Below are positions 37,132 to 45,342 of a stretch of DNA of 64,000 bases, piece by piece. Source of the DNA: Thermomicrobiales bacterium (GTDB taxonomy: Bacteria > Chloroflexota > Chloroflexia > Thermomicrobiales > UBA6265). Each line of letters starts with the position of its first letter. Position 1 is the first letter of the stretch. The notes under the pieces were generated by a model. That model did no database searches, had not been told where the DNA came from, and saw only the letters and a program-made list of their open reading frames with translations. Both the position numbers and the translations under genes were made by a program. The stretch spans positions 28,841 through 92,840 of the forward strand of contig JAMLHR010000001.1 of assembly GCA_023957015.1 (NCBI GenBank), in the 5' to 3' direction.

Positions 37132-37224
37132 ATGCGGAATCGATATCGCATCAGGCGTATCGCATTCCACACTGGATCCGGATCACCGTTGAACGTCACC
37201 AACCCATCATTGTCAGCATCCTCC

Positions 37225-39518
<2,294 letters not shown>

Positions 39519-40029: not shown

Positions 40030-40848
40030 ATGATGGCGAACCCACCCAACGGCTGGTTGACTCCAGCCGTTGATCAGCCTCCGTCTCGCCCGCAGGGACT
40101 CGTCGAGACGCTCAAACGATCCGCCTGGGTGCTTGGGCAGGGCACACTCATATTCGTTGCCTTCCAGATCTACAAGACGGTACGCCGTTACGGCATTCCA
40201 GACGACCCGGCGATCGCCTATGATCACGCCCGGAACATCATCCGCATCCAGGATCGTCTTGGCCTCTACTTTGAGCCAGATTGGCAAAGCTGGGCGCTGA
40301 ATCGCAGCGACAACTACATTCGCTTCTTCAACTATGTCTATGCCTACTACATGTGGTGGGTGATTGGCGGACTCAGTCTGCTCGCATTCCTGGCACCAGT
40401 GCGCTATCGATTCCTGCGTCGGGCTTTCTTCATCAGCATGTTTCTGGTCACCCCGATGTATCTGATCTATCCGCTGGCTCCGCCGCGCTTCATACCCGGC
40501 TTCGTCGATACGATGGCTGTCTACGGTCCGAACTATTTCTCCGAAAGTGGCCTGGTGCAAGCGAATCGTTATGCTGCGATGCCTTCCATGCATGTCGGCT
40601 GGACGACATTTGTGGCGATTGCGGTGGGTATGCTGCTGCCCTCCGCGAGGCTGCGGATACTCCTGGTAGTGTTCATGGCCTCGCTGATTACCTATGTGGT
40701 CATAATTACCGGCAATCACTATTGGCTGGATGCCGTGGTGGGTTGGATGTTCATTGGGGCCGCCATCGTGATCAACCACTACCTGCCGTATCCCTTGCTG
40801 CTGCGAGATCCTACGCCGGAGGCTCTTCCGGATTCCGGACTAGAGTGA
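40030..40848 (+). CDS. PAP2_C/inositol-phosphorylceramide-synthase-like membrane phosphatase family protein
   Basis: Multi-pass membrane protein with AAMPSMHVGW and GNHYWLDAVVGW (SxH ... HxxxD type PAP2 motifs). Confidence 0.6.
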   Translation: MMANPPNGWLTPAVDQPPSRPQGLVETLKRSAWVLGQGTLIFVAFQIYKTVRRYGIPDDPAIAYDHARNIIRIQDRLGLYFEPDWQSWALNRSDNYIRFFNYVYAYYMWWVIGGLSLLAFLAPVRYRFLRRAFFISMFLVTPMYLIYPLAPPRFIPGFVDTMAVYGPNYFSESGLVQANRYAAMPSMHVGWTTFVAIAVGMLLPSARLRILLVVFMASLITYVVIITGNHYWLDAVVGWMFIGAAIVINHYLPYPLLLRDPTPEALPDSGLE

Positions 40849-40906
40849 CTCACTTGACTCAAACCTGACACGAATGTTAAGAGAATATGACGATATGCTG
40901 ATATGC

Positions 40907-40935
40907 TTGACACGAGATATCGGTAGCGCTATGAT
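40907..40935 (+). promoter_or_regulatory. near-consensus sigma70 promoter TTGACA-17-TATGAT
   Basis: -35 at 40907-40912 and -10 at 40930-40935. This predicts a ~90-nt leader containing the hairpin CCCGCAC-AACGGC-GTGCGGG (40989-41008) before the first small gene. Confidence 0.6.
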
Positions 40936-41032
40936 GAGGTCGATGGTTGAGACCCGCATGGACGCCATCACAACATTGAGTCAAACAACCCGCACAACGG
41001 CGTGCGGGATCGCCACAGGAAAGGAGGCCACC

Positions 41033-41203
41033 GTGTATTTCCCGGCCTCAATTACGATGCAGATGCATGAGAACCAAATCGAATCTTCCCAGAATCCGGA
41101 GACACGCCGCATGGCGATGTTCAATCGAGCCCGCCGGGAAGATACCAATGGACTCCTCGTCGCATTGATCTCCCGCAAACTGCGCGGAACCAGCAGCAAG
41201 TAA
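41033..41203 (+). CDS. small basic protein, paralog 1 of 3 (56 aa), unknown family
   Basis: AAGGAGG at 41021-41027, then GTG 41033. Core NPETRRMAMFNRARREDTNGLLVALISRKLRG is shared with the next two genes. Confidence 0.6.
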   Translation: MYFPASITMQMHENQIESSQNPETRRMAMFNRARREDTNGLLVALISRKLRGTSSK

Positions 41204-41247
41204 CCGGATACCCGCTCGTATATCAGTACAGAAAGGTAAGTAACGAC

Positions 41248-41415
41248 ATGATGCCAGTAGCTTTTATCACCAGCTTCCCAACCGAAATCGAAGAGGCTCG
41301 TAGCCCAGAACTGCGCCGCATGGCAATGCTCAATCGCGCGCACCGCGAGGAAGTCAGCACGCTGTTCTCCGCGCTCACACCACGCAAGCTACGACGCTTC
41401 CGCCGGAGCATCTAG
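41248..41415 (+). CDS. small basic protein, paralog 2 of 3 (55 aa); absent from the ORF track because it is under 60 aa
   Basis: My translation: MMPVAFITSFPTEIEEARSPELRRMAMLNRAHREEVSTLFSALTPRKLRRFRRSI*. Differences from the paralogs are concentrated at third codon positions. Confidence 0.6.
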   Translation: MMPVAFITSFPTEIEEARSPELRRMAMLNRAHREEVSTLFSALTPRKLRRFRRSI

Positions 41416-41430
41416 TTCCGAGGAGGGTAT

Positions 41431-41694
41431 ATGTACCAACCCCACCTCCATACGACATTCACATCAGCAGCCGAAACGGCTACCAGCCCTGAACTGCGGC
41501 GAATGCAGTTGGCAAATCACGCGCGACGAGAGGAACTTGATCTCTTGATCTATACCTCCACGCAACGCGGTCGGCGACAAACGCCACCGACCAGCACAAT
41601 CCAGCGAGGCGCGATCGATCGAACCATCCACGCGCTCCGCGATAGTATCGGCGGCATGCTGATCTCCGCGGGTAACAGAATCCAATCGGCGTAA
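41431..41694 (+). CDS. small protein, paralog 3 of 3 (87 aa) with C-terminal extension
   Basis: GAGGAGGG 5 nt upstream of ATG 41431. The core is SPELRRMQLANHARREELDLLIY. Confidence 0.65.
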   Translation: MYQPHLHTTFTSAAETATSPELRRMQLANHARREELDLLIYTSTQRGRRQTPPTSTIQRGAIDRTIHALRDSIGGMLISAGNRIQSA

Positions 41695-41710
41695 CCTATC
41701 CGATGAATGA

Positions 41711-41756
41711 CAACAAGGAAACAGGAGGTCCAGCCGGACCTCCTGTTTCCTTGTTC
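41711..41756. repeat. 46-bp direct repeat (left copy), itself a perfect 20-bp-stem palindrome
   Basis: CAACAAGGAAACAGGAGGTCCAGCCGGACCTCCTGTTTCCTTGTTC is identical to 43337-43382. Confidence 0.95.
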
Positions 41757-43336
41757 CTTAAGTTTGGCACTCTGAGGAGGCGAGGGTTCTGGTGAGAGCC
41801 GTCGTCATCGTGGGACATGTCTGGATTGTGCGAGTCTGAGGCGTATCGTTGGCGTTAGATGGCATCCGCGACCGCCAACAGCACCTTCAAGGCGGTATTT
41901 TCCGTGGGGTTGGTCCGGAACCACGCACAATGGGGTGTTACCTGCCGGGGTGGTGCGGTCATCAGCTCTTCCCGGAGTTGCATCGTCAGGTCACGCAATA
42001 TCCAGCGACGCTGGCGGTACCAGCGCCGGGAATGCCGAATGGACGGCGGACACCTGACTCCCGTCAGGATGAGGACCGCGTACACCCAGACCACCCACTG
42101 CGTCACGGTTACTGCACCTCGGGCCGACCACTGTTGCTGGTCACCCAGTCCCCAGCCACTCTTCAGTTCCCGATGCATTACCTCCACTTCCCACCGTTGC
42201 CACACCCAGAGCGCCAGCTGTTCCACCGGATAGGGCAGCTCCCATCCGTGTGAAGTTTGGCGGGCATTGACCAGGAAGTGCATCATGTCACGCGATCGTC
42301 GTGACGATCCACGCCCACGTCCAATCCCGGCAATCGTGATGAGCATCAGGGGATGGTCGGCTGCCTTCTTGATCACCCAGGGACCGGTCACCTGGATCCG
42401 TAGATGACGGTCTTTGCCCCGCACCCGAATGACACATGTCTGCCACCCGGAATGCTCCTGTCCCTGTACAGGTGTGAGACCGCGGTCTCCATAGAGCCGC
42501 TTCCGTCCACGTCGGGGTGGTTCGTTCGGATCCGGGAGATGGTACAGCGCCTGATTCTTCGCACAGCGCGCAATCCCGGTCGTGGCCGGTGGCAGTGCAT
42601 TCCAGGTTCCGCACCACTATAGGCACCATCCCCCGTCACCACGAGGGGACGATCCCGTTCACCCAGCGCGTCCATCGCCTCCCGGATGGACCGCACACCT
42701 CCAGCGCGGCCTGCCATTCCGTCTGAGGAGGATGATCTGCCCATGGCTGCGAGGTCGCAGGATGGAGCTGGTGCAAACACCAGCGGGATGGCACGACTGT
42801 CTCCTTCCGCGGTGGGTGGTGTCAAAACTCGTCGTCCCTTCCCAGCGCTGGGCATGATGGATGCCAGGCTCCCAGGGTGGTGTCCGCGGGGATCGTCCCC
42901 ACCCCGATCCCGCATCTTCCGCCCGGTCCGCGGGAGCTGAGTGCCATCGACCACCACCACCACCGGATCATGACGTACACAGCCGCAGCCAGTGGGCGAT
43001 AACCTGACGCTGCAACGCGCTGATCGCAACCCGTGGGGCGGAGAACACCCGGTAGGTCGCGGTCCAGTCACGCGATGCCATGCCCATGAACGAGGAGCAT
43101 GCGTGAGACCATGCTCCGGCCGGTCACCAGAACCAGACCAACGGTCAGCACCAGGAGGCGCAGCGCAGCTCTGGTACAGGCATGTGACGGAGCATGGTGG
43201 CACAGGTAGTAACAAATCAGGTCGAGAACGTGGTAGGATCGGGCATCACAGACCTCTACGGATCATGAAGAGGCCCTTAGCCTACGGAGTCTGTGACTTC
43301 TTGACAATCCCCTGTACGAAAACTGCCAAAGTTAAG
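41757..43336 (-). mobile_element. IS4-superfamily (IS701/IS1634-like) insertion sequence, about 1.58 kb, decayed
   Basis: Terminal inverted repeats CTTAAGTTTGGCAC (left) and CTTAACTTTGGCAG (right, reverse complement). An internal DDE transposase is split over several frames. Confidence 0.8.
41855..43215 (-). pseudogene. DDE transposase, at least 4 frameshifts
   Basis: Pieces lie in different minus frames: GLVLVTGRSMVSRMLLVHGHGIA; DWTATYRVFSAPRVAISALQRQVIAHW; VVVVDGTQLPRTGRKM (first D); LVVTGDGAYSG (second D); QRWEVEVMHRELKSGWGLG (E/K region of IS4-type enzymes). Confidence 0.75.
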
Positions 43337-43382
43337 CAACAAGGAAACAGGAGGTCCAGCCGGACCTCCTGTTTCCTTGTTC
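43337..43382. repeat. 46-bp direct repeat (right copy), perfect palindrome
   Basis: Identical to 41711-41756. It lies 46 nt upstream of the parA start. Confidence 0.95.
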
Positions 43383-43428
43383 GGTATCATTGAGCAGATA
43401 TGACCGACCGGATCACTCCGAGGGCTAC

Positions 43429-44199
43429 ATGACCCGCATCATCGCGTTCTTCAACCAAAAAGGCGGTACTGCCAAAACCACCAGCACACTCAATGTGGCG
43501 GCTGCGCTGGCTGAACGCGGCCGACGAGTACTGACGATTGATCTCGATCCGCAGGCCAGCCTCAGTATGGCCATCGGCACCGATGTCGCCCACCTTGACC
43601 TCTCCGTGTACGACCTGCTGCTGGACGAAGAGGTAACCATCGCCGATGTGGTGCAACCAACGACAATCGCCGGGATCGATATCGTGCCCTCGCATCCGGA
43701 TCTCGCAGCCGCCGAACTGGAGCTGCTGAACGTCCTCGAGCGCGAGCGCCAGCTGGATCATCGACTCAAATCAGCGGATCTGACCACATATGACTATGTC
43801 CTGATCGATTCGCCGCCCGCGCTCAATATCATCAGCATCAATATCCTGGTGGCGATCCACGAACTCGTGATTCCGATCGAGCCGCATCCGCTCTCGCTGA
43901 TGGTGCTGAAGCGACTCTTCGAGACGATCAATCGCATCAGCCGCCTGAATCCCGATCTGCGCGTGCTCGGCTTCCTGCCAACGAAGGTTCACCACAGCTC
44001 CCGGCTCGCACAGGATATGCTGGTCCAGTTGGAGGAGCAGTTCCCGCAACTACCGCTCCTGCCGAGTATCCCGCTCAGCGTGCGTGGGGCGGAAAGCACA
44101 GCCGAACGCACGAGCGTGCTGCAATACATGCCGAGATCGAACGTCGCCGCCGCCTATCGCGATGTCGGTGCCTGGCTGGAAGGGAGCGACCATGAGTGA
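43429..44199 (+). CDS. parA: ParA-family partition ATPase (second copy in window)
   Basis: MTRIIAFFNQKGGTAKTTSTLNVAAALA, TIDLDPQAS, LIDSPPALN. Overlaps parB by 8 nt. Confidence 0.85.
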   Translation: MTRIIAFFNQKGGTAKTTSTLNVAAALAERGRRVLTIDLDPQASLSMAIGTDVAHLDLSVYDLLLDEEVTIADVVQPTTIAGIDIVPSHPDLAAAELELLNVLERERQLDHRLKSADLTTYDYVLIDSPPALNIISINILVAIHELVIPIEPHPLSLMVLKRLFETINRISRLNPDLRVLGFLPTKVHHSSRLAQDMLVQLEEQFPQLPLLPSIPLSVRGAESTAERTSVLQYMPRSNVAAAYRDVGAWLEGSDHE

Positions 44200-45196
44200 C
44201 AGACCTCGACGTAGCCGCAGATTCTCCGTCGAAGATCTCTTCACCGATACGCGACCCCAGGCTACTGGTGTCGCCGATTTGACCGAGGCCAAGGTGATCG
44301 ATCTGGATCGCATTGAACCCGATCCCGATCAGCCGCGCCATCACTTCGATGAGAACCGTCTGGCTGAACTGGCGGATGCGATCCGTCTGGAGGGTGTCCT
44401 GCAACCGATTGTGGTGCGCTATGACGGTGGGCGCGATATCTATGTCATCGTCCACGGTGAACGCCGCTGGCGGGCCAGCAAATTGGCCGAGCAGCAAAGC
44501 ATTCCGGCGATCGTGCGCGATGTACCCGAGCGGCGGCGACTGGTGCAGCAGTTGATGGAAAACGTCGTTCGCGATGATCTAAACGCCATCGATCGCGCGG
44601 CGGCACTGCGCGCCCTGCGTGCGCAGATGGACAACGCCCCCTGGGAACAGGTCGCGGACGCTGTCGGTATCAAGCGAAGTCGGTTGTTCCAGTTACTGGG
44701 TACGGAGAAGCTATCGGATGCCGCCCAGGATGATATCCGTAGCGGCAAACTAAGTGAGAAGCAGAGCCGGGCACTCCAGGGATTGACTCCCGCCCACCAG
44801 GAGGCGCTTCGGGCGCTGATGGTGGAGGAGGATATCTCGGCGGCCACCGCCATGAAGATCGCCCAGGCATTACGAACCTATGCGGAAGGTCCCAGTCACT
44901 CCAGCGCTCAGAGCGACGTTCGTACCCTCTTCGATCTACTTGAGCCAAAGGACGCGGAGGCGCTGCGTTCCCAGACGCACACCCTCCTCCTCGCAGTGCA
45001 ACAGCGGCAGAGCTCCGATCTGGCCAGGCTGCTTGGCGTACCGAGAATCAGCGATGATCGATTGACGAAGGATGTTTCGGTGTTGGCGAAATCGCTTACC
45101 CGTGCCGAGGAGCTGGGCGAGGAATCGAAGTCGACACTCGCCGAGCTGCGTGACGCAATCGACGCCATTCTCGATAGTCCGGAAAAACGCAAATGA
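44192..45196 (+). CDS. parB: ParB/Spo0J-family partition protein
   Basis: IEPDPDQPRHHFDENRLAELADAIRLEGVLQPIVV and VHGERRWRAS (ParB N-terminal box). An HTH region follows (APWEQVADAVGIKRSRLFQLL). Confidence 0.85.
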   Translation: MSDRPRRSRRFSVEDLFTDTRPQATGVADLTEAKVIDLDRIEPDPDQPRHHFDENRLAELADAIRLEGVLQPIVVRYDGGRDIYVIVHGERRWRASKLAEQQSIPAIVRDVPERRRLVQQLMENVVRDDLNAIDRAAALRALRAQMDNAPWEQVADAVGIKRSRLFQLLGTEKLSDAAQDDIRSGKLSEKQSRALQGLTPAHQEALRALMVEEDISAATAMKIAQALRTYAEGPSHSSAQSDVRTLFDLLEPKDAEALRSQTHTLLLAVQQRQSSDLARLLGVPRISDDRLTKDVSVLAKSLTRAEELGEESKSTLAELRDAIDAILDSPEKRK

Positions 45197-45231: not shown

Positions 45232-45342
45232 CTAAATCTCAGGCTGGGTGCGATTGGTTCGACTGTCGGCACCGAAGCGCACGGCCAGAACATCAAGCAG
45301 AATCAGCGAAGCGACAAGAGAAACGACGATCAACAGTTCCAT
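45232..45342 (-). CDS. 36-aa hydrophobic small protein (not in the ORF track)
   Basis: AGGAG 9 nt upstream of the ATG (complement of 45340-45342). My translation: MELLIVVSLVASLILLDVLAVRFGADSRTNRTQPEI*. Confidence 0.4.
   Translation of the reverse strand: MELLIVVSLVASLILLDVLAVRFGADSRTNRTQPEI

Follow-up and report, generated by a model that had tools for sequence, protein, structure and literature searches.

The DNA analyzed here, referred to as the window, is a stretch of 64,000 nucleotides (nt) from a Thermomicrobiales bacterium (assembly GCA_023957015.1, contig JAMLHR010000001.1, forward-strand positions 28,841-92,840). It carries three small tandem genes, designated P1, P2, and P3, upstream of the chromosomal partition genes parA and parB. 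Their products are members of a family that has not been described before and is restricted to one lineage; its proteins are small, very basic, and Arg-rich, with two predicted helices. The genes and the cis-elements around them are as follows (aa, amino acids; bp, base pairs; pI, isoelectric point; SD, Shine-Dalgarno sequence):

40876-40935, + strand: promoter with an extended conserved block (GTTAAG, TAT.AC.ATAT, GATATGCTTGAC, a G.GAT spacer, and TATGAT)
40942-41032, + strand: non-coding 5' leader of about 92 nt with two hairpins and the SD AAGGAGG at 41021-41027
41033-41203, + strand: P1, 56 aa, started by GTG; a paralog truncated to the N-terminal module; pI 10.8
41248-41415, + strand: P2, 55 aa; a paralog likewise truncated to the N-terminal module; pI 11.6
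41431-41694, + strand: P3, 87 aa, a full-length family member, pI 11.1
41711-41756, + strand: post-gene hairpin, left copy, with the 20-bp stem AACAAGGAAACAGGAGGTCC / GGACCTCCTGTTTCCTTGTT and the loop AGCC

An earlier annotation made without database searches, hereafter the sequence-only reading, had described three consecutive small open reading frames (ORFs), paralogous in tandem around a conserved core and each provided with its own SD. The sequence and the ORF list confirmed the ORFs, on the + strand, and the quoted peptides, and the SDs are present in the sequence as described. P2 is 46% identical to P1 and 40% identical to P3, with the invariant core PE.RRM...N.A.RE. The start of P1 was placed at GTG 41033, since the orthologs P0004, P0008, and P0010 have ATG at exactly that codon, gene callers gave P1-equivalent products of 56-57 aa in two orthologous loci (L053 and L055), and the lengths of the preceding leader among orthologs (92, 91, and 89 nt) differ by numbers that are not multiples of 3. 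A longer in-frame P1 of 81-109 aa, present in some gene calls, would begin in or at the promoter and leader and was rejected because the pattern of insertions and deletions marks the leader as non-coding.

The ratio of nonsynonymous to synonymous substitution rates (dN/dS) was estimated against the orthologs in L053 and L055. It amounted to 0.09-0.14 for P1, 0.02-0.09 for P2, and 0.08-0.17 for P3, with dS of 0.5-1.7. Between the paralogs, the proportion of synonymous differences (pS) reached 0.59-0.79, i.e., saturation, and that of nonsynonymous differences (pN) 0.36-0.49. As the ortholog dN/dS is low with synonymous sites near saturation, the substitution pattern marks P1, P2, and P3 as real protein-coding genes under purifying selection, and the protein-level selection already proposed for them is borne out by the whole range of values (0.02-0.17). 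The order P1-P2-P3 is kept in at least three diverged species; hence, the triplication is old, and the short copies have been retained and are not decaying fragments.

These data also bear on a reading in which the ORFs do not give rise to functional proteins at all but represent leader peptides or upstream ORFs, chance ORFs over a regulatory RNA, precursors of ribosomally synthesized and post-translationally modified peptides (RiPPs), or toxin-antitoxin-like modules. The ORFs are indeed short and repeated in tandem, with conserved RNA structures on either side, but dN/dS has already largely refuted this view: amino acid sequences are under strong purifying selection with saturated synonymous sites, insertions and deletions in the family preserve the frame, and each ORF has an SD of its own. 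The small-gene stop codon lies 18-30 nt before the downstream hairpin, too far for classical attenuation, and no modifying enzymes, transporters, or toxin partners were encountered in any locus, nor any PADLOC match. We consider such an explanation very improbable. A toxin-antitoxin, defence, or RiPP precursor role was rejected on the same PADLOC result and on the neighbours, which are PAP2, PNPOx, and parAB in all loci; nothing was found for the antitoxin-like or anti-sigma function that the sequence-only reading had also offered, PADLOC again giving no match.

A profile built from P1-P3 retrieved 47 proteins from 5.8 billion clusters, most of them encoded by single-copy genes, 83-92 aa long, and with neither a name nor a Pfam domain. 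Protein P0001 is 98% identical to P2. The family is extremely narrow in distribution, because an exhaustive HMMER search of 1.84 billion representatives yielded only 24 clusters at E<1e-3. Among the GTDB species representatives only two carry the gene, "Chloroflexi bacterium UBA6265" and "uncultured Sphaerobacteraceae bacterium". A weak match from the exhaustive search, P0063 (188 aa), was discarded as an unrelated, spurious ORF that runs across a repeat array; in its translation, ASIGPALISAGN recurs about every 24 residues, and the ORF is most likely a mistranslated array resembling clustered regularly interspaced short palindromic repeats (CRISPR).

The alignment of the family falls into four parts: a variable N-terminus, often beginning with MMP; the invariant segment SPELRRMDMxNRARREEMDAM...NPR, which corresponds to the Arg-rich helix; a variable linker rich in S, T, R, and N, in which insertions and deletions stay in frame; and the conserved C-terminal segment R..IG..LI.AG.RI(Q). 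All four are present in P3. P1 and P2 end soon after the SPELRR segment with a common short basic tail, AL..RKLR, and have no C-terminal helix. The alignment shows P3 as the full-length form, ancestral to P1 and P2, which are its C-terminally truncated derivatives, a distinction that had been missed earlier.

In P3, the Arg-rich helix is predicted at residues 20-46 and the C-terminal helix, bearing the IGGMLISAGNRI motif, at residues 55-86. Two independent AlphaFold2 runs (P3 and P0017) were concordant: residues 1 to ~18 are disordered, the Arg-rich segment forms a confident helix (predicted local distance difference test ~87), and a low-confidence linker leads to a second long helix. The predicted template modelling score was 0.29 in these runs; therefore, no fixed tertiary packing is expected. 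The first helix is hydrophilic, of low hydrophobic moment, and conserved on all faces, and the second is moderately amphipathic. A membrane-anchor or transmembrane reading of the C-terminal motif was rejected, the mean hydrophobicity being too low and the helix only moderately amphipathic. The family proteins have a median pI of 11.05 and contain ~11 Arg and ~1 Lys each; the products of the three genes (pI 10.8-11.6) contrast in charge with ParA (pI 5.1) and ParB (pI 5.7) encoded next to them.

Profile searches of Pfam, NCBIfam, PHROGs, and PADLOC with the three peptides and all 38 members gave no match. A sequence search of the PDB gave no real match (the best, eL36 at E=0.73, is noise), and Foldseek against the PDB returned 0 matches. 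The statement of the sequence-only reading that no family could be assigned thus stood up to Pfam, NCBIfam, PHROGs, PADLOC, the PDB, and Foldseek against the PDB.

The TTGACA-17-TATGAT promoter and the hairpin-bearing leader of about 92 nt that had been noticed before are both present. The promoter scores 11/12 as a sigma70 site, is the only sigma70-like site in 40700-43600, and its motif occurs once in the 64-kb window. The invariant 12-mer GATATGCTTGAC (40900-40911) covers most of the -35 box (40907-40912), and the -10 box TATGAT occupies 40930-40935. Promoters, leaders, and hairpins were compared among 12 distinct loci. In 12/12 of them TTGAC[ATG] is followed after exactly 17 nt by TAnnAT or TACATT, and little or no variation is seen in the upstream TAT.AC.ATAT and in the G.GAT of the spacer. 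The conserved block extends over ~45 bp, while synonymous sites in the same genomes differ at 53-78%. ATAT boxes with 8-bp spacing run across the -35. The conservation seen in these alignments exceeds what a -35 box needs, and the block looks like a predicted operator with ATAT boxes. An exact metagenome-wide scan with the promoter motif GATATGCTTGACNNGNGATA hit 39 contigs, none of which encodes the family, and these were set aside as chance matches.

The leader consists of a 5'-terminal stem-loop (~40942-40969), an A/C-rich linker without structure, and a further hairpin, the second, at 40989-41008 (CCCGCAC-AACGGC-GTGCGGG, with a 7-bp stem and a 6-nt loop). This two-hairpin layout was predicted in nearly all 12 orthologous leaders (89-104 nt) despite their differing sequences. 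The second hairpin has a stem of 7-9 bp and a 6-nt loop across the leaders and lies ~20 nt before the SD; RNAalifold keeps it, with compensatory changes at 4/7 pairs. Rfam gave no match in the window; when 40850-41800 was scanned permissively, the only matches were sub-threshold ones to generic hairpins.

The hairpin that follows the small genes was found in all loci and at this position only. Its core stem of 14 bp, GAAACGGGAGGTCC-N4-GGGCCTCCCGTTTC, grows to 20 bp in the window. When base pairs were counted over the alignment, 94.6% of cells were paired, 4 pairs were changed on both sides, and a U.G wobble occurred in 8/12 sequences, which argues that the structure has been selected as a sense-strand RNA and not as a DNA palindrome. 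Minimum free energy z-scores of -6.4 and -4.9 mark the hairpin as very stable. Directly 3' of it stands CTGTTCGGTATCATTG (6320-6337 in L006), invariant in the 12 loci including L058, where the stem has diverged, and the GGTATCATTG flank precedes parA in all loci. Judged by its sequence and place, the CTGTTCGGTATCATTG flank may serve as a parA promoter reduced to a -10 box, as a site of RNA processing, or as a site bound by a protein. In L006, a pattern scan from the small gene to parA detected neither a U-tract terminator nor a sigma70 promoter. No canonical parS site (TGTTNCACGTGAAACA) lies close to the locus in the window, and none was found at <=2 mismatches in any family locus; the hairpin was rejected as a canonical parS on this ground and on the U.G wobble, which favours RNA. 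The cross-species conservation of the promoter block and the leader, and the conserved hairpin after P3, had been missed by the sequence-only reading.

In the window, the small genes are separated from parAB by an insertion sequence (IS):

41757-43336, - strand (transposase ORFs): IS of 1580 bp with the terminal inverted repeats CTTAAGTTTGGCA / TGCCAAAGTTAAG
43337-43382, + strand: post-gene hairpin, right copy, followed by the invariant GGTATCATTG at 43383-43392
43429-44199, + strand: parA, Soj-type, 256 aa, pI 5.1, with Pfam ParA, CbiA, and AAA_31 on its orthologs
44192-45196, + strand: parB, 334 aa, with ParB_N and HTH_ParB, overlapping the end of parA by 8 nt

Gene order was compared over loci L001-L009 and L053-L061, which represent about a dozen distinct contigs; the window is near-identical to one of them, L002 (NCBI assembly GCA_039809955.1). 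Every locus with enough DNA has the order pyrF-YkuD-ParA-like-guaB-PNPOx-PAP2-[small gene(s)]-parA-parB, with the small gene invariably sharing the strand of parA and lying 110-125 nt ahead of it. The copy number of PNPOx and PAP2 varies between loci, and so do the genes beyond parB, with SIS or DUF2171 found elsewhere in place of the sigma factor and major facilitator superfamily transporter of the window and L002. The sigma/exporter neighbourhood invoked by the sequence-only reading is therefore a feature of these two loci and not of the others. The neighbourhood is chromosomal and housekeeping, in an uncultured Thermomicrobia/Chloroflexota lineage, and the fixed place of the family upstream of chromosomal parAB had likewise escaped notice.

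ParA is a highly conserved, ordinary Soj-type protein, 87-96% identical across loci in which the small gene and parA alike have changed at 53-78% of synonymous positions. The small protein shows pN of 0.27-0.43 beyond its two invariant motifs, against 0.03-0.10 for ParA; a fast-evolving small basic protein, with an expression unit that is self-contained and tightly conserved, thus adjoins a very slowly evolving parA-parB pair.

The IS gave a weak IS701 family match (NF049999, E=8.9e-10, below its cutoff), and its transposase is apparently split between two minus-strand ORFs, 41855-42424 and 42388-43215. On either side of the IS lies one copy of a perfect 46-bp direct repeat (41711-41756 = 43337-43382) that is exactly the conserved hairpin, and the element is missing from the near-identical L002 and from all other orthologous loci. 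It is a recent insertion between P3 and parA and not ancestral to the locus. Since the IS occurs only in the window, the small genes are not mobile-element cargo; such a role was rejected also on the housekeeping nature of the flanking genes (pyrF, guaB), and the mobile-element association suggested by the sequence-only reading proved accidental. The 46-bp duplication left the hairpin and GGTATCATTG intact beside parA. So long a target duplication, matching a whole palindrome capable of forming a cruciform, is unusual and suggests entry of the IS by staggered cuts at both bases of the hairpin.

Three further features of the neighbourhood were observed. A second, orphan ParA-like ATPase gene (37132-38025) overlaps the start of guaB (IMPDH, 38022-39518) by 4 nt, and this pairing, an unusual translational coupling with a nucleotide-biosynthesis gene, is kept in all loci reaching that far. 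A hydrophobic ORF of 36 aa, MELLIVVSLVASLILLDVLAVRFGADSRTNRTQPEI, lies on the - strand at 45232-45342, convergent with parB; it is kept at the same position in L004, L006, L054, L058, and L060 with 53-97% identity and an invariant GxDSR..R..PE, and judging from its sequence it is probably a small membrane protein missed by length cut-offs. Finally, the N-terminus of ParB (44192-44260 in the window) carries the peptide (P)RRxRRF(S/T)VxDLFTDTRPQATGV, invariant in this clade. Chromosomal ParBs elsewhere usually carry an N-terminal motif of the GLGRGLxALL type, which we take to be missing from the ParB of this clade.

Altogether, these results lead us to propose, tentatively and well aware that the odds are somewhat against it, that the family acts as a lineage-specific accessory or regulatory factor for the chromosomal ParAB locus, probably one that binds nucleic acid. 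Of the functions listed in the sequence-only reading, which was partly supported overall, the genomic context favours the partition adaptor or the small DNA- or RNA-binding regulator, and not the mobile-element, antitoxin, or anti-sigma options. The small genes probably form a tightly regulated and highly expressed transcription unit. Because the Arg-rich helix is hydrophilic and strongly basic, with conservation on all its faces, its whole surface is likely engaged by a partner, most plausibly nucleic acid. It would bind within its own locus, either at the invariant promoter/operator block or at the hairpin with its GGTATCATTG flank. Alternatively, the helix might contact an acidic partner, ParA (pI 5.1) or ParB (pI 5.7). 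The amphipathic C-terminal helix would give a second contact, through self-association or with a partner, and P1 and P2, which have no such helix, could occupy the same target minus the second contact and so provide built-in tuning. A probable role of the hairpin is that of a partial terminator or 3' stabilizer, which would keep the small-protein mRNA abundant and the read-through into parAB lower. The most specific version of this proposal makes the small protein a genuine third component of the chromosomal ParABS system, its Arg-rich helix acting on the operator/hairpin or on ParA/ParB to control ParAB, with P1 and P2 as competitors; in this form we hold it to be doubtful.

Several observations weigh against an accessory role in ParAB control, a role that we infer from the context and in which both the interaction and the co-transcription with parAB are putative. 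To judge from their sequences, all loci come from one narrow clade in which the whole 10-kb neighbourhood is syntenic, and conserved adjacency is therefore weak functional evidence. The strong promoter of the small genes and the very stable hairpin are compatible with an independent transcription unit. The IS has been tolerated with the hairpin and GGTATCATTG kept beside parA, which indicates that parAB is not strictly dependent on the upstream promoter; GGTATCATTG contains a -10-like TATCAT with no recognisable -35 and may itself serve as a separate parA promoter. As to the target, the loop of the leader hairpin is not conserved in sequence, and in L058 the stem of the post-gene hairpin has changed except for GGAGG/CCTCC with the protein helix unchanged; together, the variable loop and the changed stem argue against strict sequence-specific recognition of the stems. 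The family shows no similarity to any DNA- or RNA-binding domain by fold or sequence. A mimic of the ParB N-terminal peptide, suggested by eye from RRxRRF..DLF, was rejected after hhalign against the ParB N-termini of the same loci gave a probability of 0.1%.

One alternative is an autonomous, abundant small basic protein, associated with the nucleoid, RNA, or the ribosome, whose adjacency to parAB is inherited synteny. A consensus promoter, a strong SD, a stabilizing 5'-terminal stem-loop, and a stable 3' hairpin amount to a self-contained, highly expressed layout, the proteins are basic (pI ~11), the clade is narrow and broadly syntenic, and an IS separating the small genes from parAB is tolerated. 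Nevertheless, the order small gene-parA-parB, the strand, and the spacing of 110-125 nt never vary, while the flanking genes do; the hairpin has no U-tract and was not called a terminator in L006, where no sigma70 promoter stands ahead of parA; and 24 clusters among 1.84 billion proteins are fewer than one would expect of a general nucleoid or RNA factor. This is a possible explanation, though not one that we would expect to prevail.

Another view dispenses with nucleic acid binding and regards the family as a pure protein-protein adaptor or chaperone of ParA, or as an activator or inhibitor of its ATPase in the manner of the ParB N-terminal peptide or MinE. Its model would be ParC of the Myxococcus fulvus plasmid pMF1, a helical orphan of 87 aa whose gene immediately precedes parA in a parCAB operon and which was reported to form a 1:1 complex with ParA, to restore its ATPase, and to enhance DNA binding by ParB and par autoregulation (PMC7843461). 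The place of P3 directly upstream of parA, its 87 aa, and its all-helical structure are as for pMF1 parC, the charges of the basic small protein and the acidic ParA are complementary, and two modules joined by a flexible linker suit an adaptor. On the other hand, neither ParC nor the ParB N-terminus of the same genomes is similar in sequence, the charge is opposite to that of ParC (pI 11 vs. 4.57), and 110-125 nt with a hairpin stand before parA in place of the translational coupling that was essential for ParC (PMC7843461). ParA is moreover of the ordinary, highly conserved Soj type, and the invariant cis-elements would be left unexplained, so that we judge this view unlikely.

Were the proposed accessory role in ParAB control true, a new third player, fixed before chromosomal parAB, would have been found in a poorly studied phylum, and the leader and the intercistronic hairpin would count as cis-regulatory RNA elements newly found in a par operon. 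To our knowledge, chromosomal ParABS systems are generally seen as two-protein machines, and extra dedicated small components, ParC of pMF1, KorA, and AspA, are known only from a few plasmids. The system is compact and testable, with three natural variants of which two have no C-terminal module, and it demonstrates that comparative analysis can recover and validate genes of fewer than 60 codons that ORF cut-offs discard. Should the link to parAB be only positional, a new orphan small-protein family with well-defined regulatory elements would still remain, of modest interest.

Among the known systems, KorA of RK2 and AspA of the Sulfolobus plasmid pNOB8 are small third proteins of par or central-control loci that bind the operon promoter and work with ParB, and they have helix-turn-helix (HTH) or winged-HTH folds. 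The P1-P3 family resembles them as a small extra protein encoded with parA and parB, but in it two long helices are joined by a disordered linker, and it shows neither an HTH match nor homology to them. ParG of TP228 and omega of pSM19035 are type Ib ribbon-helix-helix (RHH) proteins that bind phased short repeats at the par promoter and autoregulate. The ATAT boxes at 8-bp spacing across the -35 recall the 8-bp-phased boxes of ParG, with binding only predicted here; in contrast to ParG and omega, the small gene precedes parA instead of following it, and the locus has a canonical large ParB. Membership in the RHH proteins (ParG, omega, CopG, Arc/MetJ) was rejected, as no Pfam or NCBIfam match was obtained in 38 members and no N-terminal beta-strand was predicted; instead, the N-terminus is disordered, with prolines and acidic residues, and is followed by two helices of 23-32 residues.

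Peptides with Arg-rich motifs of the lambda N/boxB type bind RNA hairpins and usually read features of a bulge or loop. The similarity lies in a short Arg-rich helix (RRMDMxNRARREE) beside conserved hairpins, one of them between the gene and parAB. The family differs from this type in having no PHROG or Pfam match, in the variable loop of its leader hairpin, in the downstream stem, which is a perfect long duplex, and in its location on a cellular chromosome.

In the literature, nothing comparable to the family or its cis-elements was found beyond ParC of pMF1. Like ParC, P3 is an all-helical orphan of 87 aa encoded on the same strand upstream of a Soj/ParF-type parA. The two show no similarity, however: hhalign with the family alignment gave a probability of 0.16% (E=0.36), and ParC is acidic (pI 4.57), whereas the small family is basic (pI ~11). 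With that hhalign probability, homology was rejected. The parC gene overlaps parA by 4 nt, whereas a spacer of 110-125 nt with a stable hairpin is found here; ParC is encoded on a plasmid with a small ParB, whereas the locus described here is chromosomal, with a full-length ParB of the ParB_N + HTH type; and parC is single-copy, whereas the small gene has been triplicated in one clade. Given this result and the opposite charge, ParC of pMF1 is at most a functional analogue of the family. Hence, the protein family and its cis-elements are undescribed, while a small third protein encoded before parA already has its precedent on a plasmid.

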